A DNA stretch of 64,000 nucleotides, taken from the IMG/VR virus record IMGVR_UViG_3300005083_000010; one strand, 5' to 3'. Every line of letters begins with the position of its first letter. Within the stretch, counting starts at the first letter, position 1. Both the position numbers and the translations under genes were made by a program. This document shows positions 15,832-44,210 of this stretch, piece after piece. The stretch is from an uncultured virus (IMG/VR IMGVR_UViG_3300005083_000010). Its lineage: Duplodnaviria > Heunggongvirae > Uroviricota > Caudoviricetes. The notes below the pieces were generated by a model that was not told where the DNA came from, made no database searches, and worked only from the letters and a program-made list of their open reading frames with translations.

Positions 15832-15945
15832 AAAAAGCCGCCCTAAGACAGACGTTGTACACGTCTGTCCTTGGCGGCTGTTTGAAACAACCTTCACAAC
15901 TATTCAACTACTACCATTATACCACAAACAAAAATTTTGTTAAGT
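15832..15945 (-). promoter_or_regulatory. Late promoter + structured terminator/antiterminator leader, copy A
   Basis: TTAACA-16-TATAAT (TGTG extended); leader nearly identical to 37347-37426; hairpin followed by TTTTT. Confidence 0.8.
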
Positions 15946-15948
15946 CTT

Positions 15949-18900
15949 TTACCAACCTAAATCAGCTTTTAATTTCTTCCATTTCGTGTCAGTATTGATG
16001 GATTCAAGGAACGCTATCTCCGCCGCCGACAACCCGCTAACCGCTTGCGCCGCCTCTACCCATTCGTCCTTGTCGTAACTGCCGTGTCCCTTCTCACCAT
16101 CAGGTTGGTCTACCGCTCTAAGCTCCGCCATGAACGCGATGTACTCCGCCGTGCTCATGCCCGACATCTGCGCCGCCGCGTCCGCTTTTTCTATCCATGA
16201 GGACGCGCTCGGGAGTGTGTATGTCTTGTCTGTCGCAAGCTTGTCCTTCTTGTCCGCGTAGTCGTACGCCCACGCGGTAGCCTTGTCTTTCAGCGCTTCG
16301 TCGAGTGCCTTGTACGCGGCGGAGCTTGTAAGTTCCATGTACACGGGCTTGTATATCTTCTCCTGCGCCGCCGTCCTCGGATTCACAAGGTAGTCGCGTT
16401 CGTATGCCGATAACCCTGACACCTTCGCCGCCGCTTCTTTCTTTTCCTCCGTGTCGTAACTGCCGTGTCCTTTCTCGCCCTCCGGCTCGTCTACGGACTT
16501 TAGCGCCGACCGATACAGTATGTAGTCTGTCGTGGATATCCCCATAACCGTTTCGGCGTTCCGCGCGTCCGACATCCAATCCGTTTCCTTGTCCGTACCC
16601 GCCTTGTCGTAATAGTCGTTCGCAAGCTGCCGCATTGCCGCCTTGTCCGCGTCAGACGCAGACGTGTATATCTTCGACGTAAGCACTTCGTCCATGAATG
16701 CGTTGTATTCGGCTTCCTCGTCGGGCGACACGTAGCGCTTCTCTAATTCCTTCACGCTTTTTGTGTCAGCTTCTGCTTTCATGCGGCTCTCCATCTGCGC
16801 CTTTATCTTGTCAGCCGTCGTCGCCGTGTCCGTTCCCCACATATCGCGCGCTATCATGTCGTCGTATATGCGCTTGTACGCTTCGGGATCTGTCTGCTTC
16901 GCCTCATACAGCAAATCCATGTATGTCTTAAGGTTTGACGACACGCCCTGCCGCAAAGTGTACGTAGCAAGCTTGTACTGCAATTCGACATTGTTTGTCG
17001 CGCCGGTTATGGTGTTTACGATAGACATCACATCACGCTTCACGTTATACACCGGCACCCCTAAAAGCCTTGCCGTTTCAGCAAACAAATCACTCCACGC
17101 GCTAAGCGGCGTGTACTTGCCCGAGCCTGACTGCGCTTTCATCACGTTCTGGATTGCGGAGCTTAGGTTCGCAAACCCCTCCATGTCCATACGCGACACG
17201 TCATAGCCTTGGAAGATTGACACGACGTCTTTGACGTATGGTATATACTGCAATGGATTAAACGCGCTGCCCAAATTACCTTTCAGCATGTGCGTGGTAA
17301 ACCAACCCTCGCCGTCCTCGCCCTTCCCGAAAAACTGCGCGAGCATTTTCTCCCAAAAGCTAAGTTCGTCATCGTCGTCACGCAAGGCGTCTACGAACGA
17401 TTGTACGGCGGCGTTGACGGACAGCGACGCCGCAAGTGACAGCACCGTGGCGGCTATCTTCTTCCGCGCCGCGTTCTTTTCGGTTTGGGTCGTCGCCCCC
17501 TTCAAGTCATACATAGCTGAAACAAACATGTTGTACTGCATTGTCGGCTCTGACATAAACGCCGTTGCCATCTGATTTATCGCGTTGTGCGACCGCATTA
17601 TCTGCGACCGCTGCAATGTGCCGTCAACAACCTGCGTGTTGTCTATAACCTCGCCAAACCGCTCCGCCACCGCCGCGTAAAATTCCTCCGTACCGGGCTT
17701 GAGTGACTTGTGCTTCGCCTTGGTTTCCGCTTCTATCGCGTTCCACAACACGCCCCACCCAAAGCTATCCATGCCCGACGCCGGTGCCATCGACAACTCG
17801 CGCGCTTTCTCAAGTGGCGTCTCGCTGTTAAACAGTATCTCCTTAAGCTTCTTGCCCGTCTGCACGTCAAAGTTGCCCCACGCTTTCCATTGCGCGATTG
17901 GCGCGTATTTAACCGCTTTTTGCCACCCTGCCACCACGTTTTTAGCACTTCCCGGTATGAAGTATATCGGGTTTACCATCTGCATACCGCGTATTATCGC
18001 CGTGGGCTGCTGCAAAATAACGCGGAGGTTCAAGCCCACAGCCGCCGCCTTGTAGTTGCGCATAAACCGCCCCGTAAGACTGCTGTCGTCCGTGGCGTTC
18101 CCCACTATGTCGCGCAGGAGCGTGTCAACGTAGCTTACACCCCGCTTGTCGCCCATTACTTGGTCTATAAGGTTCTTAACCGTCGTAACAAGGTTCCCGT
18201 CGTCGTCGCGGAATTTATAGTTCTTCACGCGGTTAATATCCTCAAGCACCGGCATGTATCCGGCGTAAGTCGCCATGCCGCCTAAATGCTCGCTGAACGT
18301 GTCAAACACGCTCCCGATGTATATAGACGTTTTAGCGTTAGGCGCAATCGGCTTCGCGAAACTTACGTTCTTAAGCGACGGCGTTGTAAAGCTTGCCGAT
18401 TCACCCGCTTTACTGTTAATCTCGTTCGTGTTTACGCGTATCGACCAGTAATCCGGCTCTGTAAACTTCTTGTAGTTAAACACCCGCATTGACGCTTCGT
18501 TGCCCTCGTTCGCGAGCACCGTTGACGCGTAAGCCCGCAGCGCGTCCGCGACCGCTCTTTCCCCCGGTGACAGAAGCGCGACCGCCGCCCTAACCTCGTC
18601 TTCGGTTATGCCGCTCACCGGCGTTGCGCTCTGCTTAACGTCCATTAAGCCCTTCTTGACCGTCGGAAGTACAATACCGCCTGTTAGTATGTGCGCCATG
18701 CCTTGATCACGTTCGCTCAAGTTGTAAAGCTCCATAAGCCCCGCGACCGTAAGCTCCCATTCCTCGCCCCCGAGTGTCACCGTTACCTTAGTGTCCTCAA
18801 GCTTGCGCACGTCAATGTCGTAATCCTTCAAAGCCTGTAGCGTGTATTCCCTTGCGGCTTCTATAATAGCGATCGTCTTGTCTTGCGCTTCACGCAGGCT

Positions 18901-21900
18901 CTTAAACATTGCGTCGCCCTGCCGCCCTAACATGTGGAAGAACGTGTTCGGTCTTAGCATGTCGATTTCAAACAGCTTTTGCACCGCGCCCAAAAACTTA
19001 CTCGCCGTGTTCTTAATCCGCTTGCCCTCGTTGTCCGCCCGCAGCTGCGCCGCCATCTGTGCTATCGTCTCGCCGCGCTTCGCCGCAAACGCCTTGTTAA
19101 CCGTGGCGATTGACGCCTCCACCCCGCGAATCGCGTTCCATAGCGTGTTAAGCTGATTAAGGTTCATATCCACAAGCCGCGTGTCCGCAAGCGCTATGGC
19201 GTCGTCAAGGTACCCCGTGGTGCCATCGCCCCCAAGCAGGTCAGGGTCAAGCACAAAATCCTCGCCCTTGTTCTCAACGTAAAGCCGCTTAAGCTTGTTA
19301 AACGCTTCTGTGCGCTTTGTCGCTTCGCCCGTGCCGTCCTTCACGTGCTTGCCGTCCGCGTCCACCGTGTAATTGCTCTCAAGGTTAATAGCTTCAAGGA
19401 GCGCCGCCACCGTGGTCTTAAGTTCCTCCGGCAAGTGCTTCTTGTCCGTCGGGCGCAGGAGTTTAGCGGACAGTCTGCTGACGTGCCGCTGAATCTTCCC
19501 CTTAAGCTGTGTTTCCTGCGTCCGTGTGCGTTTTGCTTGTACGCGCCGCGCAAAGTCTGCCTTAAGCTTCTGCTCGCGTTCTTCACGCTTCTGCTTAAGC
19601 GATTTCTTAAGTTCTTCTATGCGCGTGCTGTTCTCTTTCTTTATCTCGTCAAGCTTGGCGTTCTTCTCCGCTCTAAGCTTCTCGAGACGCTCCCTGTCAG
19701 TATCTTTAACCTTCTTTATCTCCTGTTGGTGCTTAACGCCCTTCACCGCCAATTGGTCACGGTACTCCGCTCTTACATTCTTAAGCTTCTGCTTGTGCTC
19801 TGCGTCCTTCGCCGCTAACTTGTCGCGGCTTTCCGCTTTCGCGTCCGCAAGCGCCTGCTTATGCTTCTCGGCGGCGGCAAGCTGTTTCATCTTCTGCTTG
19901 TCTGCGAATGTCGGTTTAGTAACGCCCACTTTAGCGGAAATATCATCAATCCAATTCTGCGCGTAACGCTCGATCATTTCCTCTACTTCTTCATCCGTAA
20001 ACTCCATCTCGATTACCTTCTCAGATTCATCGAGAATCCACGCAATGTGCTGTAGCTGATCCGCAGGGTGCGTAATATCCTCGGGGAAAAGGGCGTACCC
20101 CCATGTTTCCTGCAAATCCGCCCACTCCATATCTGTGTACGCCCCGCTATTGGCAAAGTGCAGCCTGCCGAAATGGTCTTTGAGAAACTGTCCGAAATCA
20201 GGTATACTGCGCCTGTCCTTTTGGCTTATGCTAAATGTGCGGCGCTTAAGATCGTCGGCGACATCTTCAAGATACGACGGTACTGCGTAACTCCTATCCG
20301 CTTCAACGTAAGCGCTTGCAGGACCCCGCGCAATGCGCATAGCCTCGAATATGTCAAACTCTCCGTCCTCGCCGCCCTCCACACAATACTTGCTTAGCAC
20401 TTCCATATCCTTGATAAACTTCGTCCGCTCCGACTTCGTAAAGTCTATTTTATCGTGGAGCAGCGACTTCGCAAACTTGTCAGCCTCGTCCATGTTTACG
20501 TGTATGCCCTTTGTCAGACGCGTCTCGTTGCGCCAATGCTCCACACGCTCCGCAAGCAGCTTGTTTGTGTCGTTCAGGCTCTGTATCTTGGTTTGCAGTT
20601 CCGTAAGCTCCGCATTCGTAATCCCCGCAGGCTGTTTCTTCTCCATATCCGCAACCATCTTATCAAACGCTCGGGAATACTTAGCACCGTCCGAATACTC
20701 GTCCACCGCCGACGCTAACGGCTCACCCGTTTCTTCGTCAACAACTTTTGAAACATTTTCGGGATTGACAAGATCCTCAAGCCGCTGTATGATTGAATCA
20801 GATAAAGCTTCGGGGGCGGTGGAGCTCGTTTTTACGGGGTCACCGCTGTTGCTATTGCGATTGCCCCGAAGCTTTTCTATTTCAAGCATTTCCAAAGAAT
20901 AAATACGGTTTCCGTAGTTGGCAGTTTCCTTTACTGTGAGATATGCAACATGCTCGCCATTGAGCAATATAGGCGCCGCGAACCTTTTTATAGTAACATT
21001 CGGATCACCCGCGTCCTTATGAGAAGACACCTCAATAGCGTGCTTCCAGACACGCTGAATGTTCTTAACAACCGTTAGGTGCTGTTTCTCCGTAAAGCCA
21101 TTATTTATTGATTTAGCAATAGCCACATTGTTTGTAAGTTTGCGCCTTTGCTCACCGTTAATCTGTGCCGTTACCCCTTCTTCTACATTAGCTAAATCAA
21201 TACCTGCCAAAGCCTTTAACGCTTCCTGTACGCTGGTGCTTGTCGCCTTGGTGTCTATGCTTAATGTCAAGTCCGCTACGGTCTCCCAATCCCCGAACCA
21301 CTTCTTAAACGCCGGCGTCCGCACCGTAAGCCATTGCTTCGCGTCAAGCTTCGTGTCCTTGCCATTCGGCGCTTTAAGCCATTGCGGCGTACCTTCGTAC
21401 TGCTGACGCACGGCGGCTTCTTCTTCGGTCAAGTTATACGTCTCACCGTCATGTGTGAAGGAGCGGCTAAATTTCACGTCCTCAACGGAATTAAGCGCGT
21501 CAAGCCTTGCCGCCTCGTCGCCGTCCGGGTACTCCAAAACTTGTACGCCGTTGTCTTCCAGTCCACTTACCACGTCCGCGTCCGTTCCTTCCGGCACGAC
21601 CGCCGCCACTACCTCGTTGAAACCGACGGCGCGCGCAGGCTTCGCTTCAAACATGTTGACGGGCATTTCCGCTAAATCGTTGGCTAAATCGGCGATCTCC
21701 TGCGCAATCTCCGGTGTAACCTTCTTATGGTACTTGCTAAGCTCCGTATAAATTGACTTCGGATTTTTCGTCTTTTTAAGCACTTCAACAATATCCGTAC
21801 CAATCTCATCAAACGCTCTAAAACTGTTAGAGCTATTGTCCGGCAATAGGCGATTCAGTATATCATGATATGTATTTTCGTATTCCTTTCGGCGCTCGCC

Positions 21901-24900
21901 CAATTCTTCCTCGGACAGCGGTGACAGCCGTCCCTCGTCCGCTTTAATATCAGATATACTCTTGTACGTCTTTGCCGCCGCCGCCGCGACTACGGACGCC
22001 GTAGGCGCGAAACCACCCTCCGCTCTGTCACCGCTTGCCTTCATTGCCTTAACAATGTTATCAAGGGTATAATCGTCATACAGCTGTGTGAATGTACGCC
22101 TGTTGCCGGAGGCGGTAAACATATCCTTGTTATTCCTGATACCTTTGCGAGAAACAATGCCGGAAAACTGTTCGCGCACCCAAGCCTTGTATTTATCCAT
22201 CAAGCCGGAATCGTTCTCAAAATACTCATCAACCAAACTTCCTGTCAAGCCCTCGTCATACGACGTCACCCCACGCAATTTCAAGTAGTTACGCACATCA
22301 TTAAACAAAGAATCCGCGTTGCCGTAGCCAAAATTATCCTCGGTATATAACTCCTTCGGCGCATTATCGCGTAACTTCTTTGCAAACCCGGACGGATTAG
22401 GGTTCTTGGCTATCGTGGCTTCCATATCCGCGCGATACTGAGTATTCAGCGCGTCGCGCATACGCTTGATTATTTCATCTCGGTTCTCGTCAGGAAGATA
22501 ATTATTCTCAAGGAATAAGTCCTCGCCCATTTCAGCTATGACTTCTTCCACGGCGTCATTACCGAATTGGCTGTTAAATCCGGTCATTTCCGGTTTAAAC
22601 CCGTCAATACCGCCGTCAAGCGCAAACAGTTGTTTTAATCGCCCCGCGTACTCCACGCCCTCGCCAATGTCGCCGCGCCCGTTATCTACGTACTTTTCCA
22701 ACTCGTATTCACGCGGTATAAGATTGACGCCGCCCATATTTAGACTGCGCTTATCGATTATCTTCTTGAACCGCTCCGTCACTGCCTTGATTACCTTCGT
22801 GTCAAGCTCGTACCCGACCTCCGGCGTCGTCGGCGTCCACGCGTCCGCGCCGTACACCTTGTTACGCTTGTCGGAAGGGTTAATCGTGTCCTTGCGGAAC
22901 ACAAGCGAAACGTCGCCGAATTTATTCCACCCATCACGCCCCTTTACAATCGCTATTGACGGCATGGGCAAGCCGCCAAGGCTCAACGCCTCTTTTAGCT
23001 TCGGCACATTCAGGTTATGCACGGCGATTAAATCTTTCGTTTCTTCAATAGGAAACGCCCTGCTAAACTTAGGCTCGTCAAACGTGACCTCATCGAGTAT
23101 CTTCACGGCGTTGTCGTCGAACACTACATAGCACTCACCGTCCTTATCTCCGTTGTAATATATGCCCTTTATGCCGTATTCGTTTAGTGTTTTTGACGCC
23201 CACTCATCATTCCGTATTTCGTCAGAGGACTTTTGGTATCGCGCATACTCATAAAGCTTCTTATAAATGTCAGAGCCCCTATCATAATTTGAAAACTCCA
23301 AACCGCCAAAGCGGAACCTTCTTTGGATTTTTTTAAGAGCGCTCTGGACTGTATCAGGTTGCTCAACAAACATCGCAAATTCGTCAATCATTACGTCCAC
23401 GTCGGGAATGTCCACGGTGAAAAGCTTGCCCGGAGGATCCCAATTTGCGGCAACCGTATTCTTAAACCATTCACGGGCTTTTTCTCCATAGGCACTATCG
23501 TTCGCAACCGCTTCTATGTCACCTGAAAGTAGAAGCTCGTCGATTAGCCCCATTCGCTCATAATATTCCTGCGCCGTATCGCCGCTGCTCTTGTTTGCTA
23601 TACGCTCAAAGCTGTCCTGCCACTCCGACAGCGTTTTGCCTTTAAACTTCGCCGTCCTCTCATATTCTGAATAAACGTCTTTCGCAAGGGCTGTCTGATA
23701 CCCGAGTGCCACCTGCTTATCCTTCGCGAAATACAAGCCCCAACCATGCACCTGTGCGCCCTCGCCGCTGCCGATATGCTCAAGCAGGAACTTGTCAAAC
23801 TTGTACGGCGAACCGTGAAAAGCGATAGAAAATTTTGCCGTATCCTTCGGCACCTCAACCGTCGTGCCGTCAGTTAGCTCTATCTTGCCGTTTTCAAGCT
23901 TCAACCCATTATCAATCGCACCCGGAGATTTTTTATTTTGGGTATTGCTTTTTTCTGCGTCAGGCGTTACACTTGAGTTAAGTTTAAGAGCGTCTTGTGT
24001 CTCCGTCTTGGACGTTACTCCGGGAATACCTTTATTGGTAGGTATCGGGGCGGGCACTACGGCGCTCTTATTCTTATATGCTGTTATGACATAAAGTGTC
24101 TTTAGACTTGTGTCCGGAACGACTTGTGAGACAATATATGCCCCATTTACCCGCTTTTCTATTAACACCTTATCAGCTTTGGTTCCGTCAGCATTATGAT
24201 ACCGAGACGATTTCCCATCAAGCTTACCGTTGTCTGCGTTTGCCAGAACATACCCAATCCGCGCTATGTCGCGGTTGTCGCGCATTGATTTATCCGCGCT
24301 ACCATTCTTACCGTGACGTTTTTGTATGTGGTCGATTTTGTCGTTTTGTATCTCAATCTTGTACCCGCTATAATCACGTCCGGTCAATTGTTTCAACAAA
24401 GCGCCAAGCGTATCGTTTACGGTACCCACCGACACCGCCCCACTAATTGCCGAATCTTCCCCCGCTTCAATCCTGATAGCTCGTTCTAAGATGTCGGCGT
24501 CAACCGCATTATTGTACTCGTCTATGGTCTTTTGCATATTTACATCGGCATTAAACTTCTCCCCCTCCGGCGGACCCGTCCTGCGCGCCGTCCCCGCTTC
24601 GGTCTCGTTGCTTAGCGCCGCCCTGCGCGTGCTTGCCGTAAACACCGCCGCGCCGCCCGCTTGCGCAACCCTCCGCGCTATACTATTCTCGTCAAATACG
24701 TTCATGCCCGCGAACGCGTCACAAAGCATTTCCTCTATGATCTCGTCCCGTGACATGTTCGTGCCATCGTAAAGCGAGGCATACCAATTAGCCAACACGT
24801 CAAATTCCGCCTGCGTGAAGTCCTCGGCAATGCTTGCCTCCACCCGCGCCATAAGCCCCGGGTCGGATCGTATGTATGAATGGAATAGCTCATGATTGGC

Positions 24901-27900
24901 AAGCTGTGTCGCCGTAAACTCAGGGCTGTCTACGCGTATGACAATATCCGCGCCCTTTATGAAACCCTGTACACGATACGATTGCCCACGCTCACTTACG
25001 TGAATATCGCCCGTGACGAACGTCACATTAAACCCACGCGCTTCAAGCTCCGCCTTTATCTCTTTAAGCTCCGCGTCGTCCTCTATCGCCGCGTCCGGTA
25101 CAACCGTCGCGGTCGTCTCCGTCGTACCGTTTTTAAGCCCTAAGTCCTTGCCGCTTACTTCCCGTCCGGATAAAGCTTTGACATTATTTCGTCTTTCAAC
25201 TGCTGTTGCTTTTTGGTCAGCGGCTTCTTCTCCCACCCCGGCTTGTGCGCGGAGTGCCACGCGCTTACGCTCCCCTCCGGTATTACCGCGATCCCCCCGT
25301 TCGGAGCTTGCACGAAGTACCGCGTCACCTCCGGTTTGTCCTGCGGCTTTTCCTGCGGATTGTCCTGCCTCTTGTCCTGCTGATTCGACACTTGTTACAC
25401 CTCCGGTCTTTGTTTCTTTGACTTCTCCAACATTCTGTTGTGTAGTCGTTGCTTTTTGCGTGTTCGCATTGTTTTTCTCTGTGTTCGCGTATTTGTTCTT
25501 GTACGAACCGTTAGCAATATCCGCGCCCCCTGCGTCGTATGCGGCGGTAATCTGATCTATAGTCATAACGTCTTCCGCATGGGAACGTACCATAGCGTCA
25601 TATGGATTCTGGTCGTTCGCGCCCGCTTCATACATTGCGTTAAACGCTTCTGCGTATTCAAACGTATCCGTTGTTGACGAAACACCGCTATTATACGCCT
25701 TTGCGCCCTCGGTGCCAAGCGTGGAAAGGTACATGCCGTTTGAGCCTTTGTATGTGCCGTTCTTCACGTCTGCGACACCCGCCGCGTATGCTACCGCTTG
25801 CTGATACGACGTAAGCGCGTTTGTCGGGTCAAGCGCCTGTTCAAGTTCGGCGTTGTCGGTCAAGCCCTTCGCGCCCGCTTCATAGAACGCGTGATACACC
25901 GTGTCATACGCAGACTGGTCTTGCGTTGTGGCATGGTCAAAGCTGTATCCCTTCTTACCCTCGTCGCCAAGCGTACTAAGCGTAGGCACGCTCTCAATGT
26001 CTGACTTGAACGTGTCAAAATCCCACTCCGCCGCCTGTTCCGTCGCGGCTTCGGCTTCGGCTTCTGCCGCCACTTCCTCTGTTGCCGTTGACGCCGCTGC
26101 TGTTACGTCCGCCGTTGCCGCTTTTTCTACTACCGGTGTTGCCGCTTCTGCCTCCGCAGACGCCGCTATCTTTTCTTCCAAAGCGGATTTAACAATCTGT
26201 ATCTGTTCAGCTTCGGTAATATGCCACGGTAACTGCTCCTGCATAGCATTCATCTTTGCGGGGAAGTCCGGGTCAAGTTCCTCGACAGCGGCAGTATCTT
26301 GAAACACCTTCGTGGCTAATTCGTCAGACACCGTGCCGTTGTTAGCCCGTGCATACTCTACCGCCTCTTGAAGCGTTGCGTTCGTAGGCGCAAACACCTC
26401 TTTTGCCGGTGCCTGTGCCGGTGCTGCTTCTGCCTCCGCAGACGCCGCTTCTGTTGCCGCTTTTACAGCGGCGGCGATGTCCGATGTCCCGCTTGTAGGC
26501 TCAACGGTTTTTTGTTTAGCCGAATTAACCGCGCCTGATATAGCGGGCGCGGCGGACACCGTACCGCCTACGGCTGTACCTATAGCCCCCGAATACAACG
26601 CCCGTGCGGGGTTTATCACGCCCTCACTTTCCTTGTCAAGCGGATCCTCCGCTATCCACGGTATATTCCTACCCGCTATAAGTTTGTTGACAGCACCTTC
26701 CCACACGTCCTGCGGTATCTCTTCAAAACCTTCGCCCAGAGCCGCCTTTAAGTAAGCCACCAAGCCTTTTAACCCGCCCGACTTGAAAGCCGCCTGCGCG
26801 CCGCCGCCCTCAAGCACACTCTGACCGTAAGCGTTGATGATAGCCGCAAGCATTGCCGTAGGCTCGTCGACACCTTCCGCTAAATTGTCCTGATACGACT
26901 GCGCAAACACCTTAAGCCCAATCGGCGCCGTGGACGCGTCAGGGATCGCCGCCTTTGCCGTCGCCTTCGCCGCCGACTTAAGAAACGTATTGCGCGTTTC
27001 CTTATCCATAACAATCTTTGCAATCTTCTTCGGGGCTTGCTTTGCCAGATCCTTCAAACTAAGCTTAACCGCCGCTTTTGCCCCCGCCTTCACGCCGCTC
27101 TTGGTAAGCCCCGCTATGCCCATCGAAAGTACCATGTCCGGCACCACTTGAAGCGCGTCATACACAAAGCCTAAAACAAAATCGCCTTGTGTAGCTTGCT
27201 CCCGCAAATCCTTCGCCGCTTCAAAATCCGCAGCACCTTTCGCTAACATCTCGGGCGCATATGTCGATTCGCTCATCACGTCTTTCAGTTCTTTTTCCGC
27301 TTCTTCGTAAGTCTTACCGGTACCCGCAGACATAGCTAAAGCGGTTAACGGTAGATAATTCGCTTCGTTGTTCGCTTGTAACGCCGATGACGCCACCGAC
27401 GCCACCGTGTGCGCCATGCCTTTGGTGTCTTGCCACCAACCTTTGCCCGCAAGCGTCAGAAAGTCTGAAATCTTTGACGCATTGCCAAGCTCGCCGCCGC
27501 TCTCACTCAGAAGCCTCGCCGCAGGAACCTCGGGGGTAGGCGCGGTCTCTTTTGGCGTCAATGTCAGCGGAGTTTTCGCCGCCGCCGCAACCGCCGTTTC
27601 CGCCTCGGTCACCCCCGGCGTTAATGTCAGCGGGTTTTGCGCCGCCGCCGCCGAAATCGCACCCAACCTCACCGGACCGACCGGAGTAACCGTCTGAGGC
27701 GTCTCCGGCGCGGACACCTTTAACGCCCCACCCCCATTCGACGTCAATGCAAGCGGACTTGGTTCCGCCGTAGGAGTAGTCGCCGTCGGAGTAGTCGCCG
27801 CCGCACTTGACGCGCCGCCTTTAAGCCTGTCAGCCGTGGATTTTAACACCACATTATCCGTTGCTTTCTTCGCAAGTTCCTCAAGCTTTGTCACCGTCGT

Positions 27901-28074
27901 TTTCGGCGCAAGCGAAAGCTCCGCAAGCTCCTTCTGCTTTGCGGCTTCTTGCGCCTCTACCGCTTTTTGCTCGGCAACCATATCACGCGCCAGTTTTATC
28001 TTCTCGGAAAGAGATGTAGTCTTTTTCTTGTTCTCTGTCTCCCGCGCCTGTGCTATCTTTTCTTTAAGTGTCAA
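15949..28074 (-). CDS. Giant polyvalent ejection protein (4041 aa): HExxH metallopeptidase, PBECR-like RNase, ART-PolyVal-like ADP-ribosyltransferase, LPD3-like and other domains
   Basis: NHELFH..EE; DHIQKRHG..DIARIGYVL; FHGSPYKFDKF..GEGAQVHGWGLYF; WLKAPNGK..VRTPAFKKWFGDWE; helical C-terminal ejection region. Confidence 0.85.
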   Translation of the reverse strand: MTLKEKIAQARETENKKKTTSLSEKIKLARDMVAEQKAVEAQEAAKQKELAELSLAPKTTVTKLEELAKKATDNVVLKSTADRLKGGASSAAATTPTATTPTAEPSPLALTSNGGGALKVSAPETPQTVTPVGPVRLGAISAAAAQNPLTLTPGVTEAETAVAAAAKTPLTLTPKETAPTPEVPAARLLSESGGELGNASKISDFLTLAGKGWWQDTKGMAHTVASVASSALQANNEANYLPLTALAMSAGTGKTYEEAEKELKDVMSESTYAPEMLAKGAADFEAAKDLREQATQGDFVLGFVYDALQVVPDMVLSMGIAGLTKSGVKAGAKAAVKLSLKDLAKQAPKKIAKIVMDKETRNTFLKSAAKATAKAAIPDASTAPIGLKVFAQSYQDNLAEGVDEPTAMLAAIINAYGQSVLEGGGAQAAFKSGGLKGLVAYLKAALGEGFEEIPQDVWEGAVNKLIAGRNIPWIAEDPLDKESEGVINPARALYSGAIGTAVGGTVSAAPAISGAVNSAKQKTVEPTSGTSDIAAAVKAATEAASAEAEAAPAQAPAKEVFAPTNATLQEAVEYARANNGTVSDELATKVFQDTAAVEELDPDFPAKMNAMQEQLPWHITEAEQIQIVKSALEEKIAASAEAEAATPVVEKAATADVTAAASTATEEVAAEAEAEAATEQAAEWDFDTFKSDIESVPTLSTLGDEGKKGYSFDHATTQDQSAYDTVYHAFYEAGAKGLTDNAELEQALDPTNALTSYQQAVAYAAGVADVKNGTYKGSNGMYLSTLGTEGAKAYNSGVSSTTDTFEYAEAFNAMYEAGANDQNPYDAMVRSHAEDVMTIDQITAAYDAGGADIANGSYKNKYANTEKNNANTQKATTTQQNVGEVKETKTGGVTSVESAGQEAGQSAGKAAGQTGGDAVLRASSERGDRGNTGGERKRVALRAQAGVGEEAADQKATAVERRNNVKALSGREVSGKDLGLKNGTTETTATVVPDAAIEDDAELKEIKAELEARGFNVTFVTGDIHVSERGQSYRVQGFIKGADIVIRVDSPEFTATQLANHELFHSYIRSDPGLMARVEASIAEDFTQAEFDVLANWYASLYDGTNMSRDEIIEEMLCDAFAGMNVFDENSIARRVAQAGGAAVFTASTRRAALSNETEAGTARRTGPPEGEKFNADVNMQKTIDEYNNAVDADILERAIRIEAGEDSAISGAVSVGTVNDTLGALLKQLTGRDYSGYKIEIQNDKIDHIQKRHGKNGSADKSMRDNRDIARIGYVLANADNGKLDGKSSRYHNADGTKADKVLIEKRVNGAYIVSQVVPDTSLKTLYVITAYKNKSAVVPAPIPTNKGIPGVTSKTETQDALKLNSSVTPDAEKSNTQNKKSPGAIDNGLKLENGKIELTDGTTVEVPKDTAKFSIAFHGSPYKFDKFLLEHIGSGEGAQVHGWGLYFAKDKQVALGYQTALAKDVYSEYERTAKFKGKTLSEWQDSFERIANKSSGDTAQEYYERMGLIDELLLSGDIEAVANDSAYGEKAREWFKNTVAANWDPPGKLFTVDIPDVDVMIDEFAMFVEQPDTVQSALKKIQRRFRFGGLEFSNYDRGSDIYKKLYEYARYQKSSDEIRNDEWASKTLNEYGIKGIYYNGDKDGECYVVFDDNAVKILDEVTFDEPKFSRAFPIEETKDLIAVHNLNVPKLKEALSLGGLPMPSIAIVKGRDGWNKFGDVSLVFRKDTINPSDKRNKVYGADAWTPTTPEVGYELDTKVIKAVTERFKKIIDKRSLNMGGVNLIPREYELEKYVDNGRGDIGEGVEYAGRLKQLFALDGGIDGFKPEMTGFNSQFGNDAVEEVIAEMGEDLFLENNYLPDENRDEIIKRMRDALNTQYRADMEATIAKNPNPSGFAKKLRDNAPKELYTEDNFGYGNADSLFNDVRNYLKLRGVTSYDEGLTGSLVDEYFENDSGLMDKYKAWVREQFSGIVSRKGIRNNKDMFTASGNRRTFTQLYDDYTLDNIVKAMKASGDRAEGGFAPTASVVAAAAAKTYKSISDIKADEGRLSPLSEEELGERRKEYENTYHDILNRLLPDNSSNSFRAFDEIGTDIVEVLKKTKNPKSIYTELSKYHKKVTPEIAQEIADLANDLAEMPVNMFEAKPARAVGFNEVVAAVVPEGTDADVVSGLEDNGVQVLEYPDGDEAARLDALNSVEDVKFSRSFTHDGETYNLTEEEAAVRQQYEGTPQWLKAPNGKDTKLDAKQWLTVRTPAFKKWFGDWETVADLTLSIDTKATSTSVQEALKALAGIDLANVEEGVTAQINGEQRRKLTNNVAIAKSINNGFTEKQHLTVVKNIQRVWKHAIEVSSHKDAGDPNVTIKRFAAPILLNGEHVAYLTVKETANYGNRIYSLEMLEIEKLRGNRNSNSGDPVKTSSTAPEALSDSIIQRLEDLVNPENVSKVVDEETGEPLASAVDEYSDGAKYSRAFDKMVADMEKKQPAGITNAELTELQTKIQSLNDTNKLLAERVEHWRNETRLTKGIHVNMDEADKFAKSLLHDKIDFTKSERTKFIKDMEVLSKYCVEGGEDGEFDIFEAMRIARGPASAYVEADRSYAVPSYLEDVADDLKRRTFSISQKDRRSIPDFGQFLKDHFGRLHFANSGAYTDMEWADLQETWGYALFPEDITHPADQLQHIAWILDESEKVIEMEFTDEEVEEMIERYAQNWIDDISAKVGVTKPTFADKQKMKQLAAAEKHKQALADAKAESRDKLAAKDAEHKQKLKNVRAEYRDQLAVKGVKHQQEIKKVKDTDRERLEKLRAEKNAKLDEIKKENSTRIEELKKSLKQKREEREQKLKADFARRVQAKRTRTQETQLKGKIQRHVSRLSAKLLRPTDKKHLPEELKTTVAALLEAINLESNYTVDADGKHVKDGTGEATKRTEAFNKLKRLYVENKGEDFVLDPDLLGGDGTTGYLDDAIALADTRLVDMNLNQLNTLWNAIRGVEASIATVNKAFAAKRGETIAQMAAQLRADNEGKRIKNTASKFLGAVQKLFEIDMLRPNTFFHMLGRQGDAMFKSLREAQDKTIAIIEAAREYTLQALKDYDIDVRKLEDTKVTVTLGGEEWELTVAGLMELYNLSERDQGMAHILTGGIVLPTVKKGLMDVKQSATPVSGITEDEVRAAVALLSPGERAVADALRAYASTVLANEGNEASMRVFNYKKFTEPDYWSIRVNTNEINSKAGESASFTTPSLKNVSFAKPIAPNAKTSIYIGSVFDTFSEHLGGMATYAGYMPVLEDINRVKNYKFRDDDGNLVTTVKNLIDQVMGDKRGVSYVDTLLRDIVGNATDDSSLTGRFMRNYKAAAVGLNLRVILQQPTAIIRGMQMVNPIYFIPGSAKNVVAGWQKAVKYAPIAQWKAWGNFDVQTGKKLKEILFNSETPLEKARELSMAPASGMDSFGWGVLWNAIEAETKAKHKSLKPGTEEFYAAVAERFGEVIDNTQVVDGTLQRSQIMRSHNAINQMATAFMSEPTMQYNMFVSAMYDLKGATTQTEKNAARKKIAATVLSLAASLSVNAAVQSFVDALRDDDDELSFWEKMLAQFFGKGEDGEGWFTTHMLKGNLGSAFNPLQYIPYVKDVVSIFQGYDVSRMDMEGFANLSSAIQNVMKAQSGSGKYTPLSAWSDLFAETARLLGVPVYNVKRDVMSIVNTITGATNNVELQYKLATYTLRQGVSSNLKTYMDLLYEAKQTDPEAYKRIYDDMIARDMWGTDTATTADKIKAQMESRMKAEADTKSVKELEKRYVSPDEEAEYNAFMDEVLTSKIYTSASDADKAAMRQLANDYYDKAGTDKETDWMSDARNAETVMGISTTDYILYRSALKSVDEPEGEKGHGSYDTEEKKEAAAKVSGLSAYERDYLVNPRTAAQEKIYKPVYMELTSSAAYKALDEALKDKATAWAYDYADKKDKLATDKTYTLPSASSWIEKADAAAQMSGMSTAEYIAFMAELRAVDQPDGEKGHGSYDKDEWVEAAQAVSGLSAAEIAFLESINTDTKWKKLKADLGW
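20765..20880 (+). ncRNA. Candidate antisense sRNA with its own promoter, nested after the LPD3-like domain
   Basis: TTGACA-17-TATGAT; perfect 12-bp stem 20804-20815/20864-20875 enclosing GCGGTG/CACCGC and CGT-TTTT-ACG hairpins; T-rich tail. Confidence 0.65.
23945..24076 (+). ncRNA. Candidate antisense sRNA with its own promoter, nested after the PBECR-like domain
   Basis: TTGCTT-17-TACACT; 10-bp stem 23985-23994/24061-24070 enclosing a multi-stem junction with CGT-CTTGG-ACG; T-rich tail. Confidence 0.65.
25155..25391 (-). CDS. Candidate nested out-of-frame 78-aa protein inside the polyvalent gene
   Basis: GGAGGT 7 nt before GTG; protein-like composition. Confidence 0.45.
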   Translation of the reverse strand: MSNQQDKRQDNPQEKPQDKPEVTRYFVQAPNGGIAVIPEGSVSAWHSAHKPGWEKKPLTKKQQQLKDEIMSKLYPDGK

Positions 28075-28104
28075 CCACCGTCACCCCATTCATGCAGTCA
28101 TAGG

Positions 28105-30264
28105 CTATTGTGAAAGCAAATATTCTATGAGTTTCACACCTTCGCTTGTCAATCCGCCGCCGCCGCCAGATAGTCTGTACTCTAAAATTTCTCCGTATTT
28201 TGCTAATTGTTCCGTCGAATTAGTTGAATCAGCTTCGAGAGCGAGGTCTAATACCTGCAACACATACTCAATGTCCGAACCAAATTCCTTCGCTAATTCT
28301 TTCGCAGACATACCCAATTGCTGGGATAACGCCGCGTATGTACCGGTGCCGCTCACCAAGTTGCTTCCGGAGCCTGTCTTGAATGTTACGCTGTCGCTGT
28401 TCTTCGCCGCGTTAATCCGCGCCGTCTCCGCGTTTAATCGGCTCGTTTCTGCCTGATACCACTCACGCTCATTGTCCGCTATAGCCTGCGCGTAAGATTG
28501 ACTGTACGTTCCCGCCGGAAGCCCTAAATACGGCTCCATCCAATCTGTAACCACACCCGTTGTCTTAAACGTATTAAGCGCGTTCTCAAACATCGTTTGA
28601 TACGCCTCGTCTGCCAACTTTGCCGCCGCCGCTTCTGCCGCCGCCTGTGCGTCTATCTTCTGTTGACGCGCCGCTTGCAGATACGGTATCAGCGGATCGT
28701 CCGCGTCAAGCGTGTTTATGTATGCCTGTATATCGCTGTAGTGCGCCTGTGCCTGTACCGCCGCTTCGTTCGCGAGCGCTTCTTGCTCCGCGCTTGCTAT
28801 CTTAAGCCCGTTTAGCGTCTGCTCCTGCTGTGTCGTTTCAAGGTTTGCCGCGCTCTGCGCAAGCTCCGCGTCCGTCAGCTGTCCCGTCAGCGTCTTTGAA
28901 CCGTCAGGCAGCGTCCCTGTATCCGTTATCGCGTCACGCAATGCCTGATACGCTCTCTCATACTGCGTAGTATCAAGCCCCTGTAACAGGCTCATCACGT
29001 CGTAAAGCTTTGAATCCTGCACCGTGTCGCGTGTGTACTCCGTGTTTGAAGCGTTTGTCAAAGCGTTAAGCAGCGTGGAGTAGTCCGCCGTGTCGTCGCG
29101 ATACTGCGCATACTCGTCGTTCGACACGCCTTGCAGCGCTTGCAATTGGCTTATAATGTTTGTGTACTCCTGCTGTTTCTGTTGCTGTCCTTGCGCTATA
29201 AGCGCAGGGAGTACGCTTGACGCAAAGTTCTGATTATACACGTTTTGCGCCTGTGACGCTGCCGCCGTCGCCGCCGTGGACGGTCTGCCGCCTGTCATTG
29301 CCGCAAGCGTCGCCATCTGGTCGGCATACGCGTCGCGCCCCGCCCTCTCGTAATACTCCTTAAGCGCTTCATACTGCGGGTCGGAATACACGTCGTAACT
29401 GCTGTCGAAATTTGTCAAAGCGTTTAACGCGCTCGAAATCTGGTCTGCGTACGGATTTTGATACGTCGTGTTGGCTATATTTGTCAAAGCGTTTAACGCG
29501 CTTGTTATCTGGTCTGCGTACGGGTCTTGATACGCCGTCTGCGAATCCGCAAGTATTGCGTTAAGGTACTGCGTAATCAAGTCCGTATACTGCGTTGTCG
29601 TGGGCGTGCTTGCGCTCGACAAGTAGTTTAACGCCGACGATGAATTAGTCGTGCCCGTGACCGGATACCCGGACTGATCAAGCACCTGTATAGCCACCGC
29701 GGGTATATTCTCCGTAGGTATGCCCATCTTAGCAAGCACCGCCGAAACGCCCTCTATCGTAGCGGGGACAGTCTCACCGTAAAGCTGTATCGTCGCCGTC
29801 GTAGGCGTTGCCGCCGCCGCCGTTCCCGTTGACGTGCTTGTGCTTGCGCTTGAACCCGCGAGCATTGACGACACCGTGGACGGTATCATCTCTGCGGGCA
29901 TACCCGCTTTAGCAAGCTCCGCCGCAATCGCGTCCGCCGTGGCGGGAACCGTAACACCGTTAATGTTCAGCGTCGCGCCCGTCGTTGTTGGCGTTATAGT
30001 CGTAACCGGCGTCGATGTCGTAGGCGTAATCGTTGCCGCCGCCGGAGTTGACGTCGTAGGCGTAACCGCCGCAGCAGCCGGAGTTGTAGTTGTCACCGCA
30101 GGAGTTGTCGTAGTCACCGCCGGAGTTGTCGCCGCCGCAGGAGCGGCGGTAGCCGCCTTATACTCCGAAGCTATGCGCGCCTCATACGCGCCAAGGCTCT
30201 CCGTCGCGCTCTTTGGATTTGCCGCCGCGTAATCGTAAATCGAGTTGTATGTCGTAGTCGCCAT
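28105..30264 (-). CDS. Putative internal virion/ejection protein
   Basis: Ala/Thr/Gln-rich helical; YSDPQYEAL..AAMTGGRPSTAA; internal duplications; precedes the giant protein. Confidence 0.7.
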   Translation of the reverse strand: MATTTYNSIYDYAAANPKSATESLGAYEARIASEYKAATAAPAAATTPAVTTTTPAVTTTTPAAAAVTPTTSTPAAATITPTTSTPVTTITPTTTGATLNINGVTVPATADAIAAELAKAGMPAEMIPSTVSSMLAGSSASTSTSTGTAAAATPTTATIQLYGETVPATIEGVSAVLAKMGIPTENIPAVAIQVLDQSGYPVTGTTNSSSALNYLSSASTPTTTQYTDLITQYLNAILADSQTAYQDPYADQITSALNALTNIANTTYQNPYADQISSALNALTNFDSSYDVYSDPQYEALKEYYERAGRDAYADQMATLAAMTGGRPSTAATAAASQAQNVYNQNFASSVLPALIAQGQQQKQQEYTNIISQLQALQGVSNDEYAQYRDDTADYSTLLNALTNASNTEYTRDTVQDSKLYDVMSLLQGLDTTQYERAYQALRDAITDTGTLPDGSKTLTGQLTDAELAQSAANLETTQQEQTLNGLKIASAEQEALANEAAVQAQAHYSDIQAYINTLDADDPLIPYLQAARQQKIDAQAAAEAAAAKLADEAYQTMFENALNTFKTTGVVTDWMEPYLGLPAGTYSQSYAQAIADNEREWYQAETSRLNAETARINAAKNSDSVTFKTGSGSNLVSGTGTYAALSQQLGMSAKELAKEFGSDIEYVLQVLDLALEADSTNSTEQLAKYGEILEYRLSGGGGGLTSEGVKLIEYLLSQ

Positions 30265-33440: not shown

Positions 33441-34600
33441 CTTTCTAAATTTACTAAAATCTGCGACTACGCAAATTTCACATTAGATTCCTGCTTCGTA
33501 GCACCCTTTAGACGCTCCACAGGCTTAACTTCCGGTGCTGCCCACCGTAGTATATTTATCGCCGCATTTACATCGCGGTCGTGTTCCGTTCCGCAATCGG
33601 GACACTTCCATTTTCTTACCGACAGCCGCATTTCTCGCTGATAATACCCGCATATGCTACAAGTCTTGCTCGACGGTTCGAATCTTCCGCAGTACCGCAC
33701 TTCGTTAGCTTTGTACTCGAAATGTCGTCTTATTTCCGCAAAAGCAACATCTGATATGGCGCGGGCTAAGTTATGGTTTTTGACCATACCAGCCACATTC
33801 AAGTCTTCAAGACATATCGTTCCGTACTTCTGCGTCACGTCCGTAGTAAATTTGTGCGTGTAGTCATGCCTTGCACAAGCTGCCCGATAATANNNNNNNN
33901 NNNNNNNNNNNNNNNNNNNNNNNNNNNNTGTGCGTGTGCTATCTTCTTGCGAAACTTCTTTTCAACGTGTGGGTTCGGATATTTCGTGCCGTCCGACAAT
34001 GTGGCGAGGTCTTTTACACCTAAGTCTATTCCAATTTCGCCAGACGCTTGGTTTTCGCTGTCAGGCACTTCGCATTGGATAGACACGAACCACATATCTG
34101 CCGTTCTCGACACCGTTACGTTGTAAATCTTTTCTGCTTCGTACCGCAGTTCTTCCGACATCTTGATTTTGAGTTTCTTCGGCAATCGAATGTATTTCCC
34201 GTCAAACTTTACAACCGAACCGTCTATCCTGAAACTGTCGCGTACACCTTTCTTGTGGAACTTCGGGTGTGCGTTCTGCTTGCTGTACATCTTCTTGAAC
34301 GCACCGTCAAGGTCGTTTAACGCTGCTTCTGCCACCCACTTGCTGACTTCATACACAAACGGGTATTGTTCCGCCTTGATTGAGTTCCACCATCTCTTGA
34401 TTGAGTAATAGTTGTGCTTGATTCCGTTCTTATAGTCCTCGTTCCATTTTGCAAGACAGGAATTGTATGCAAGGCGAGCCACGCCGCAATGCTTTATAAG
34501 CATTGTCTGCTGTACGTTATTCGGATATATCCGTATTTTGTGCGCCCGCTTCATCCCTTATCAACTCCTTTGCCTTTTTGTATTTGCGAAGACCATACCG
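33441..34600 (-). mobile_element. Non-autonomous IS607-family derivative (tnpB + tnpA C-terminal remnant)
   Basis: Flanked by GG on both sides; YGLRKYKK remnant upstream of tnpB; removal restores GGAGG-TAGGACGT-ATG. Confidence 0.7.
33467..34554 (-). CDS. tnpB: TnpB RNA-guided endonuclease (frame split only by the N gap at 33893-33928)
   Basis: HKIRIYPN HTH; GIDLG, LEDL, HDRDVNAA RuvC motifs; CxxC..CxxC. Confidence 0.92.
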
Positions 34601-34618
34601 CCTCCGCTATTAACAGAA

Positions 34619-34650
34619 CGGGGCGCAGAGGCTTAAACCCTGCGCCCCGC
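34619..34650 (-). terminator. Hairpin after the capsid gene
   Basis: CGGGGCGCAG..CTGCGCCCCG followed by TTCTGTT. Confidence 0.7.
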
Positions 34651-34655
34651 ACGTC

Positions 34656-35555
34656 TTAGGTTGATATGTTACCGTAAATCCACTTGTAGTCTGTGTAGCC
34701 GTAACTCCAAGAGCCGACTACCTTGTACTTGATTGCTTCGGTGTCAAAATCCTGATCTCTTTCAGGGCTTGGGTGCCTTGAATCGAACCATTTCAGATGA
34801 CGCTTCATAGCGGACGAATCCACCAAGAACCACTTCTTACCCGTGATGAAGGGGTGATAGAAATACTTAAGCTCGCTGCGCATTACGTTGATGTCGTTAA
34901 GCTCCGCAGGCGTGAGATCCGCCGCGCTCGTGCCGCAAATCTTCTTGCCCTCGTCCCAATACTCAATGCCCGTAATAAGCGTGTCAGGCTGCAAGAAAAG
35001 CAGATCGCCCTTGTCGTCCGTAAGCTGTGCGAGCGCCTTGTACGCCTTGATGAGGTTGGGCAGCGTCAGCGGATCCGTGCCGACATTGCTCTGCGTGTGT
35101 GTCGTGTCCTCCGGTGAGAACGGGTGCGCCGCGCTACAAAGCGGCTGTCCGTCAGGTCCTAATAGCGTGTTGTCAAACGCCCCCTCAAACGGTACAACTC
35201 CGTGACCCTGATATGTCTTGTAGACAGTATCAGCGAGCAGCGCCGTCCTTTCTTCAAGGTGGTTGTACTGCCTGTATCTGAATATATCTTCCTCAAATAC
35301 AAGACCCGAGGAATACTTCCTCTGTATGAACCTCTTCTCGAATCCGAGGTTAAACTGCTGATAGCTGACCGTACCTTCCCACGGCGCCATCTTGCCGATT
35401 GAGCCGACACCTACAAACACCTCCTGTATGCTGTCTGTGTCCTTCCTGTTGTAAAGCTTGCCGATGTAGTCCGGTTTCTTGTACATCTCAGTATCCCAAA
35501 ATTCGGCTACGGACGCGGTTGTTGCGTCGATAATCTCTTGAGTGATGTAACCCAT
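34656..35555 (-). CDS. Major capsid protein (Mu gpT-like)
   Basis: GPDGQPLCSAAHP..SN..L..DDKG..PDTL..WFLVD..DFDT..YGYTDYKWIYG. Confidence 0.85.
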   Translation of the reverse strand: MGYITQEIIDATTASVAEFWDTEMYKKPDYIGKLYNRKDTDSIQEVFVGVGSIGKMAPWEGTVSYQQFNLGFEKRFIQRKYSSGLVFEEDIFRYRQYNHLEERTALLADTVYKTYQGHGVVPFEGAFDNTLLGPDGQPLCSAAHPFSPEDTTHTQSNVGTDPLTLPNLIKAYKALAQLTDDKGDLLFLQPDTLITGIEYWDEGKKICGTSAADLTPAELNDINVMRSELKYFYHPFITGKKWFLVDSSAMKRHLKWFDSRHPSPERDQDFDTEAIKYKVVGSWSYGYTDYKWIYGNIST

Positions 35556-37275: not shown

Positions 37276-37346
37276 CTTTCGCCCTCCTGACTGGTTTGTC
37301 AGCCTATATTTATCTGCGGCTTGGTGACCGCTAAACATCTGCAAAT

Positions 37347-37460
37347 AAAAAGCCGCCCTAAGGCAGACGTATGCAGCGTCTGCCCTTGGCGGCTGTTTGA
37401 AACAACCTTCACAGCTATTCAACTACTGTCATTATATCACATTTTCGACGTTACGCAAGT
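37347..37460 (-). promoter_or_regulatory. Late promoter + structured terminator/antiterminator leader, copy B
   Basis: TTGCGT-16-TATAAT (TGTG extended); same leader as copy A with compensatory changes. Confidence 0.8.
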
Positions 37461-44031: not shown

Positions 44032-44210
44032 GCGACAGCACATCAGCACATCGGCGCGGCGGGCGCATAAAGCAAGCAGCCCCGGGCGGGCGGAGAGAGG
44101 GAAAAAAGGTTAAAACCCGCTTGAAATAGCATGTTTCACGACTTGTTAAAGATTTATCAATTCTCAAAAACAAGTGTTTTTGAGAAAACGCAAAATTGGA
44201 AATTTTCGAG

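Follow-up and report, generated by a model that had tools for sequence, protein, structure and literature searches.

Two families of predicted antisense small-RNA genes in the linkers behind LPD3 and PBECR3 domains of phage polyvalent proteins

The uncultured virus recorded in IMG/VR as IMGVR_UViG_3300005083_000010 (Caudoviricetes) is represented here by one stretch of 64,000 nucleotides (nt), referred to throughout as the window, in which a giant minus-strand gene encodes a polyvalent virion protein of 4041 amino acids (aa). Within this gene, in the linker codons directly behind an LPD3 and a PBECR3 domain, the opposite strand carries a promoter-like sequence followed by a compactly folding, multi-stem element. 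In this report, we describe the two elements and their counterparts in distant homologues, and we weigh the explanations that may account for them. We judge it likely that both sites are members of two previously undescribed families of predicted antisense small-RNA genes, whose products may act as a safety catch on the neighbouring domain.

Two antisense elements within a giant virion-protein gene

The window derives from a phage or prophage, with genes for terminase, portal, head, internal-virion, tail-fibre and lysis proteins all on the minus strand from about 43 kb down to 1 kb and a divergent regulatory region at 44-46 kb. The giant gene is flanked by an internal-virion-protein gene and tail-fibre genes. 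The C-terminal third of its product matches phrog_22978, a phage family of giant proteins, and the Pfam domains recognized in it are PBECR3, PBECR5 and LPD3 (Table 1). By the definition of Iyer et al. (2017; PMC5512222), the product belongs to the polyvalent proteins, and it is probably ejected.

An initial annotation of the window had placed two promoter-like hexamer pairs on the plus strand, antisense to the giant gene, and both are located exactly where it put them (Table 1). At site 1, the two hexamers closely resemble TTGACA and TATAAT and their spacing is within 16-18 nt, as expected for promoters of the sigma-70 or sigma-A type. Site 2 matches the consensus at 7 of 12 positions when counted by hand; our consensus scan used a threshold of 9/12, and this site is therefore not listed by it. 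On its two strands, the gene (12.3 kb) contains 15 promoter-like sites, compared with 8.9 +/- 3.0 in shuffled sequences. A sigma-70-type promoter is plausible for the host of this phage because the phage's own regulatory region carries sites of this type that match at 10-11 of 12 positions.

Behind both promoters, the multi-stem elements described in the initial annotation are indeed present. The plus strand folds at -43.5 kcal/mol between 20800 and 20900 (z score -4.96) and at -39.3 kcal/mol between 23980 and 24080 (z -4.48), with 0 of 200 shuffles equal in either case. When all 64 kb were scanned in 100-nt segments (step 20, GC-regressed), the segments starting at 20781 and 20801 ranked first on the plus strand and that at 23981 was the fifth segment and fourth locus, while neither element was among the top 40 of the minus strand; in a shuffle-based scan of the gene (241 segments per strand), 20800 was the extreme on both strands. 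Another plus-strand fold, at 25400-25499 (z -3.68), was considered as an element of the same kind and rejected, as it consists of two small hairpins without a promoter.

The Pfam coordinates put both elements directly C-terminal of a domain, as had been proposed, and the two share a CGU-N4/5-ACG hairpin that is also a conserved motif of the PBECR3-linked family. An intrinsic (Rho-independent) terminator calls for a stem rich in G+C with a U run immediately behind it; in element 1, the 15-pair stem is followed by UUUUCUAUUUC, whereas the tail of element 2 is interrupted and reads UUAUUCUUAUAU. Many relatives have tails with runs of 5-8 T, and the tails are weak in high-GC hosts. The further proposal that each predicted ribonuclease (RNase) domain is followed by such an element holds for LPD3 and PBECR3, but is too broad because PBECR5, in the same gene, lacks one: the 131 nt behind it (plus strand 22290-22420) fold at z +0.10. 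This negative case comes from the window, a single-protein search of viral contigs having yielded no confirmed PBECR5 locus. Rfam 15 covariance models gave no match to the gene at E <= 1 and, in two sets of 20 homologue loci, only one unrelated sub-threshold match per set. Tandem Repeats Finder reported 0 rows for 20600-24300, and ARAGORN found 0 transfer RNA (tRNA) or transfer-messenger RNA (tmRNA) genes in 15900-28200.

Table 1. Features of the giant gene and of the two antisense elements, in window coordinates
Feature	Coordinates	Strand	Remarks
Giant polyvalent virion-protein gene	15949..28074	-	12,126 nt, 4041 aa; from the open reading frame (ORF) list and translation; contains both elements
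PBECR3 domain, aa 1227-1337	24064..24396	-	Pfam PF18812, E 2.4e-13
PBECR5 domain, aa 1669-1886	22417..23070	-	Pfam E 4.2e-43, strongest RNase match; negative case, without an element behind it
LPD3 domain, aa 2279-2392	20899..21240	-	Pfam PF18798, E 4.8e-9; AlphaFold predicted local distance difference test (pLDDT) 94.6
Antisense promoter 1, TTGACA-17-TATGAT	20765..20793	+	11/12 in consensus scan; positional homologue of TTGACn-17-TAnnnT in VNP-type LPD3 loci
Antisense promoter 2, TTGCTT-17-TACACT	23945..23973	+	Weak, 7/12; aligns with the family promoter TTGACA-17-(TGn)TAyAnT
Element 1, predicted antisense RNA of ~80 nt	20800..20883	+	15-pair closing stem around two hairpins, then T-rich tail over ...EIEK codons
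Element 2, predicted antisense RNA of ~95 nt	23980..24080	+	Closing helix P1, helix P2, CGUCUUGGACG hairpin, fourth hairpin, weak T-rich tail

Recurrence of the elements in distant homologues

The 4041-aa protein has no close relatives: it is a singleton in a 5.8-billion-cluster collection, with best relatives only 34% identical. In the phage collection, there was no DNA match to the window and no cultured relative of its PBECR3 domain, and the only matches to its LPD3 domain were Helicobacter prophages; an LPD3 query against plasmids gave no match. Because this phage lacks close relatives, generality was tested in distant homologues, which share 25-46% protein identity.

For LPD3, eleven viral loci have homologues at 25-33% identity. 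In eight of them, the linker at the corresponding place reaches an antisense z of -3.3 to -5.3 at best, and the long closing stems of the eleven loci have unrelated sequences and the same closed fold. The LPD3-linked RNAs are thus conserved in shape, not in sequence. A larger set was assembled by searching for the ART-PolyVal start motif (VDENGEP) in viral contigs and in one genome per GTDB species and by adding the eleven loci; this gave 191 non-identical anchors, which were split with an LPD3 profile seeded from Pfam-confirmed members. Across the 191 loci, composition-corrected folding energy dips only in segments starting 150-120 nt upstream of the ART start, where mean z is about -1.2 on the antisense strand, compared with about 0 elsewhere. 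Values of z < -2.5 occur in this interval in 32% of loci antisense and 26% sense, against 3-7% in control intervals. Where LPD3 lies upstream, such values are found in 52/78 loci antisense and 36/78 sense; where it does not, in only 10/113 and 13/113. The fold therefore tracks the presence of LPD3, and the hairpin is part of the LPD3 C-terminal linker rather than of the ART start.

The two arms of the stem co-vary, and the fold shows a strand preference. When arms were swapped between 67 non-redundant LPD3 loci, the mean minimum free energy (MFE) changed from -36.4 to -29.0 kcal/mol, a cost of 7.4 kcal/mol (p 4e-11). In 45 of these 67 loci, folding is more stable on the antisense strand (p 3e-4), and G-U pairs number 4.85 antisense vs 2.72 sense. 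In a Bacteroidota subfamily, a 12-sequence MAFFT alignment with a hand-set structure has 69.6% of its cells paired, compared with 59.7 +/- 1.8 after shuffling; 0 of 500 shuffles reach the observed pairing, and 19 pairs are changed on both sides.

The promoter-like words are likewise positioned, and which type is present varies with the phylum of the host. In the LPD3 loci, antisense words cluster with the -10 box ending 50-26 nt before the anchor, at a density of 0.77 per locus vs 0.04-0.28 in the other 25-nt bins. The word TAnnTTTG is present in all 22 LPD3 loci from Bacteroidota genomes (controls 4%), with TTTG 17-23 nt upstream in 15/22, and in only 3 of 20 loci from other phyla (Fisher p 4.5e-9), where sigma-70 matches of at least 9/12 are found in 12/20 (controls 7%) and the promoter takes the form TTGACn-17-TAnnnT. 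According to PMC7366714, TAnnTTTG with TTTG at -33 is the Bacteroidetes primary-sigma consensus. In the VNPxxVSK subfamily, which is nearest to the window, the hydrophobic codon that supplies the -35 box ends in C in 11/11 loci (background 0.20, p 2e-8), and the first paired base follows the -10 box by 5-8 nt. Altogether, the 67 loci include 46 with the hairpin, 60 with a promoter-like site, 41 with both and 2 with neither. One LPD3 locus, L193, lies on a 2.8-kb contig whose bin is labelled Firmicutes and combines a promoter word and a protein subfamily of Bacteroidota type; the contig may be mis-binned.

Two further groups of LPD3 loci come from named phages or prophages. The cultured Pseudomonas aeruginosa phage H66 (Hollowayvirus, NC_042342.1) has an LPD3 homologue within its giant virion-protein gene FGG48_gp60, and behind it (locus L361, 1078-1177, minus strand) an antisense hairpin with an MFE of -50.5 kcal/mol and a z of -7.0, preceded by a weak promoter-like word, TTGCGG-16-TACACT. 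Helicobacter prophages, whose LPD3 domain is not followed by ART, carry TGTGGTATAAT, of the extended -10 type, on the antisense strand of the LPD3 linker at the equivalent place. In the prophage records BK070148.1 (L302) and BK070062.1 (L304), the peptide IIPQ recurs in several linkers of mosaic polyvalent proteins. Since the codons for IIPQ read TGTGGTATAAT antisense, antisense promoters in these prophages may follow more than one type of domain.

The PBECR3-linked element was traced through a protein alignment of PBECR3 domains, which gave 26 viral loci, 22 of them non-identical; in the sampled genomes the domain occurred in 5/401, too rarely to be used. Folding energy again dips just after the domain end, to a mean z of -1.6 on both strands for segments starting 10 nt before that end (n=22), with 5-7 of the 22 loci below -2.5 at the dip and z near 0 in most segments elsewhere. 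The loci share TTGACA-17-(TGn)TAyAnT, the words CGTTTCGGACGT and ACTTGCG, and a closing stem behind which a run of T extends over the AY[IM][NS]KK codons. Among 20 loci, the promoter matches at >= 9/12 in 15 and at >= 10/12 in 12 (controls 13%). A four-helix, hand-set structure has 69.1% of cells paired in the raw alignment, compared with 56.0 +/- 1.7 after shuffling (0/500 as high) and 39-47% when the structure is slid along the alignment.

A DNA pattern composed of the -10 box and the RNA word retrieved 56 further viral loci from IMG/VR, most of which were confirmed by a covariance model. Among these 56 pattern-only loci, PBECR3 lies on the opposite strand in 47 and on the same strand in 0. 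The model-fitted alignment of 58 distinct sequences has 78.8% of cells paired vs 57.4 +/- 0.9 when shuffled, and 295 cells changed on both sides vs 107; compensatory pairs are found in helix 1 (7/7), in helix 2 (6/6) and so at all 13 positions. The family model places element 2 of the window at 23942-24096 with 72.4 bits and an E value of 1e-13, the window being among its 17 seeds. At the RNA motif, codon choice is skewed, threonine being encoded by ACG in 10/11 loci (background 0.30) and serine by TCC in 9/9 (background 0.12). In 2 open cases the motif falls in a different frame, and in 4/20 loci it coincides with a stop codon or follows one. As judged from this persistence in other frames and beyond stop codons, the conserved motif is not a protein constraint. 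In L276, L292, L300 and L301, the protein ends before or inside the motif, with TAG falling within the conserved word in L276 and L292. The linker peptides of LPD3 and PBECR3 homologues are poorly conserved; two weak shared motifs, G-T-[ST]-P and T-S-E-T, coincide with a small internal hairpin of the RNAs.

Membership in a single RNA family was rejected: the PBECR3 model, R1, misses element 1, and a model of the Bacteroidota LPD3 subfamily, R2, misses the window and most LPD3 loci. The families are therefore distinct, in line with the initial observation that the two elements differ in sequence. The architecture common to both sites, consisting of an antisense promoter, a closed multi-stem RNA whose start is some 5-10 nt past the -10 box and a T-rich tail, recurs in the distant homologues. 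Promoter conservation and covariation, the signs by which homologues were expected to bear the annotation out, were both found for the LPD3- and the PBECR3-linked elements. Its suggestion that domain and element travel as one cassette is upheld by the association of the fold with LPD3 and by the antisense position of PBECR3 at 47/56 pattern loci. At the level of sequence, then, comparison shows two conserved families of nucleic-acid elements that are under selection and antisense-oriented, each inherited with one domain family and furnished with a host-type promoter. They occur in phages and prophages of Bacteroidota, Proteobacteria, Verrucomicrobiota, Spirochaetota, Campylobacterota and others.

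Elsewhere in the window, a transposase-like ORF (phrog_506 / phrog_13964) at 33835-34554 on the minus strand lies inside the structural module and adjoins the major-head gene, and two of the window's most stable minus-strand folds, at 34561-34680 and 37301-37400, are near it. The most stable minus-strand fold of all is located at 44201, in the divergent regulatory region. Between 44200 and 46000, GC skew switches and sigma-70-like promoters of 10-11/12 cluster on both strands.

Alternative readings and points of weakness

Several observations weigh against a reading of the elements as antisense RNA genes. Promoter 2 is weak in the window (7/12), though the family consensus is matched at 10-11/12 in 12/20 relatives, and the tail of element 2 would be a poor terminator. 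PBECR5, also a BECR-type RNase, has no element in this gene. Under a strict 100-nt z criterion, the hairpin is found in only 46/67 LPD3 and 9/20 PBECR3 loci, and hairpin and promoter together in only 41/67 and 5/20; many of the loci are related to each other, so these counts are not independent events. RNAalifold gave no consensus structure for plain MAFFT alignments of either the LPD3 or the PBECR3 loci, for which reason structures were drawn from single-sequence folds and covariance models; these folds and the model fitting of one alignment are choices that both favour structure. The codons of the conserved peptides EIEK, AY[IM][NS]KK, VNP and KDK overlap the T-rich tails and portions of the promoters, to which protein constraint therefore contributes. 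The RNAs are predicted from DNA sequence, and no homologue with a published transcriptome was found. Finally, the sense strand of the same two intervals folds almost as significantly, at z -3.90 for element 1 and -4.20 for element 2; since both strands fold at both sites, the window by itself cannot name the strand.

The last point lends some weight to a role in the sense messenger RNA (mRNA), in which the hairpins would slow ribosomes for domain folding or mark a processing site and the antisense promoter words would be by-products. Transcription of the sense strand is beyond doubt, the elements are situated at domain boundaries, and a substantial share of the LPD3 loci (36/78) also have sense folds of z < -2.5. 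We nevertheless regard a sense role as distinctly unlikely, since the antisense strand folds better in 45/67 loci and has more G-U pairs, and since the element persists after stop codons in 4/20 PBECR3 loci and is absent behind PBECR5 and at ART starts without LPD3. Such a role would also leave unexplained the promoter words, fixed in position and following the host phylum in type. These words also count against inverted repeats that work as DNA, whether as cruciform or hairpin signals at cassette borders for domain shuffling or as replication or packaging signals. Polyvalent proteins are described as mosaics of shuffled domains (PMC5512222), the elements do lie at borders, and both strands can fold. 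A DNA signal, however, would need neither a host-type promoter at a fixed distance nor a T-rich tail nor G-U pairs biased to one strand, and no recombinase-type core motif is common to the two families; we hold it to be very unlikely.

If the promoters are real, they need not serve a cis-acting RNA. Small protein-coding genes nested in the linkers are highly improbable products. ORFs with an ATG, GTG or TTG start are slightly commoner than in controls (44/67 vs 136/263), but ATG-started ORFs that reach 30 codons do not exceed their frequency in antisense controls (16/67 vs 70/263; 7/20 vs 21/78), neither window element has an ATG in its first 70 nt, and the conserved signal consists of paired stems with compensatory changes. 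All of the evidence for an RNA gene is shared by trans-acting small RNAs directed at host or phage targets, for which the linker codons would be free space and the domain link mere hitch-hiking; the poor conservation of the linker peptides and the conserved unpaired or loop words of the PBECR3 RNA, CGUUUCGGACGU and ACUUGCG, fit this idea. We still think it unlikely, because each RNA family has kept to a single domain family in different phyla and in widely differing protein architectures, a link that shuffled linkers would not be expected to keep, and because the LPD3-linked RNAs have no shared sequence for a common seed. There remains chance, in the form of an ordinary coding region with a promoter-like word beside a palindrome. 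The sites were selected post hoc from 64 kb, the score of promoter 2 falls short of the scan threshold and other segments of the gene reach z of about -3.7, yet the recurrence of one architecture at one place in dozens of loci at 25-46% protein identity, with covariation, leaves this explanation with hardly any probability.

Known systems, a possible function and its implications

If the elements are antisense RNA genes, as we favour, their function would depend on what the neighbouring domains do. The LPD3 domain of the window was modelled with AlphaFold from 64 homologues at high confidence (Table 1). Foldseek searches with this model returned nothing below E 1e-3. The top rows from VIA-align were CdiA-CT 7m5f_C (Z 6.0), BrnT 3u97 (5.4), CdiA-CT 6cp9_A (5.0), RelE 1wmi (4.2) and colicin D 5znm_B (4.2), all in the range of Z < 8 that may reflect only a common arrangement. 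The model thus weakly suggests that LPD3 resembles RNases of the RelE/colicin-D-type BECR fold. With regard to the initial description of LPD3 as nuclease-like, the best matches are indeed the RelE, BrnT, colicin D and CdiA-CT toxins, but at Z values of 4-6 that speak for it faintly; because these values are low, we treat the likeness as a lead and not as a finding. If it is right, both RNA-bearing domains would be RNase-type toxins.

Among known systems, the closest in form are the short cis-antisense RNAs of temperate phages, lambda OOP and P22 Sar, which control regulators of the lysis-lysogeny decision and are features of single lineages. Like the RNAs predicted here, they are about 70-100 nt long, with their own host-type promoter and a hairpin plus U tail, and lie antisense within a phage protein gene; unlike them, the present elements lie in inter-domain linkers of a giant virion protein and form families that extend across phyla, each tied to one domain. 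In type I toxin-antitoxin systems, an antisense RNA acts as antitoxin against the mRNA of a toxin, typically a small hydrophobic membrane peptide with a gene of its own. A constitutive antisense RNA overlapping the messenger of a toxic product would similarly set a threshold against leaky expression, for example from a prophage. Both predicted RNAs are, by position, fully complementary to the giant gene's messenger; unlike in type I systems, the partner would be one domain of a 4041-aa polyprotein, with the overlap just 3' of that domain. In type III systems (ToxIN, CptIN, TenpIN), an RNA of tandem repeats is encoded upstream of the toxin on the same strand, with a terminator between the two, and is processed by the toxin. 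The pairing of a structured RNA with an endoribonuclease toxin is the parallel drawn in the initial annotation, but here tandem repeats are absent, the predicted RNA lies behind the domain on the opposite strand, and the toxin would have a BECR-type fold.

The host gene itself is a textbook polyvalent-protein gene, with its PBECR3, PBECR5 and LPD3 domains, but an RNA layer is not part of the system as set out in the main text of Iyer et al. (2017; PMC5512222), which does not once use the words antisense, noncoding or small RNA. A 2026 BECR preprint likewise has 0 occurrences of 'antisense' and 'RNA antitoxin', and a search of a collection of article texts found no published description of the elements. 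That search likewise found no work on how phages avoid self-poisoning by packaged RNase and ADP-ribosyltransferase domains.

On the reading that we favour, the linker codons that immediately follow the LPD3 and PBECR3 domains of polyvalent proteins would double as RNA genes. Each such gene would open, antisense to the protein gene, with a promoter of the kind that its host uses. Some 5-10 nt beyond the -10 box, transcription would begin at the base of an RNA of 80-100 nt whose multi-helix fold is closed by pairing between its 5' and 3' ends, and the RNA would finish in a T-rich tail shared with the final codons of the domain. Host RNA polymerase would presumably transcribe these genes in any cell that contains the phage DNA, lysogens among them, and the RNAs may then act like a safety catch on the adjacent domain, a presumed toxin of RNase type. 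They could do so in the manner of type I systems, by pairing with stray sense transcripts of the giant gene, or in that of type III systems, by binding the domain as inhibitor or cofactor; an antitoxin or cofactor role is purely what we infer. More specifically, and only tentatively, the elements might form domain-level toxin-antidote cassettes. PBECR3, and likewise LPD3 if it is a cryptic RelE/colicin-D-like domain, would then each be accompanied by a dedicated antisense linker RNA. This RNA would keep its BECR-type RNase domain harmless in the producing or lysogenic cell, as a direct inhibitor or cofactor or through destruction of stray messenger, and would move with the domain when domains are shuffled, its promoter re-tuned to each host phylum.

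One of the two families alone accounts for 56 pattern matches in IMG/VR. That a single layout returns behind the same two domains in well over a hundred unrelated phages and prophages suggests that predicted RNase domains travel with a hitherto undescribed RNA partner. The families constitute a natural experiment, in which the same element is found with the promoter type of each host, and they offer a lead both on the function of LPD3 and on how phages avoid poisoning themselves. As phage H66 carries the LPD3-linked element, the idea is directly testable in P. aeruginosa. If the RNAs are made, giant phage proteins now annotated as single genes would hide a second layer of genes, and linker peptides that look like junk would have been shaped by an RNA encoded on the opposite strand.

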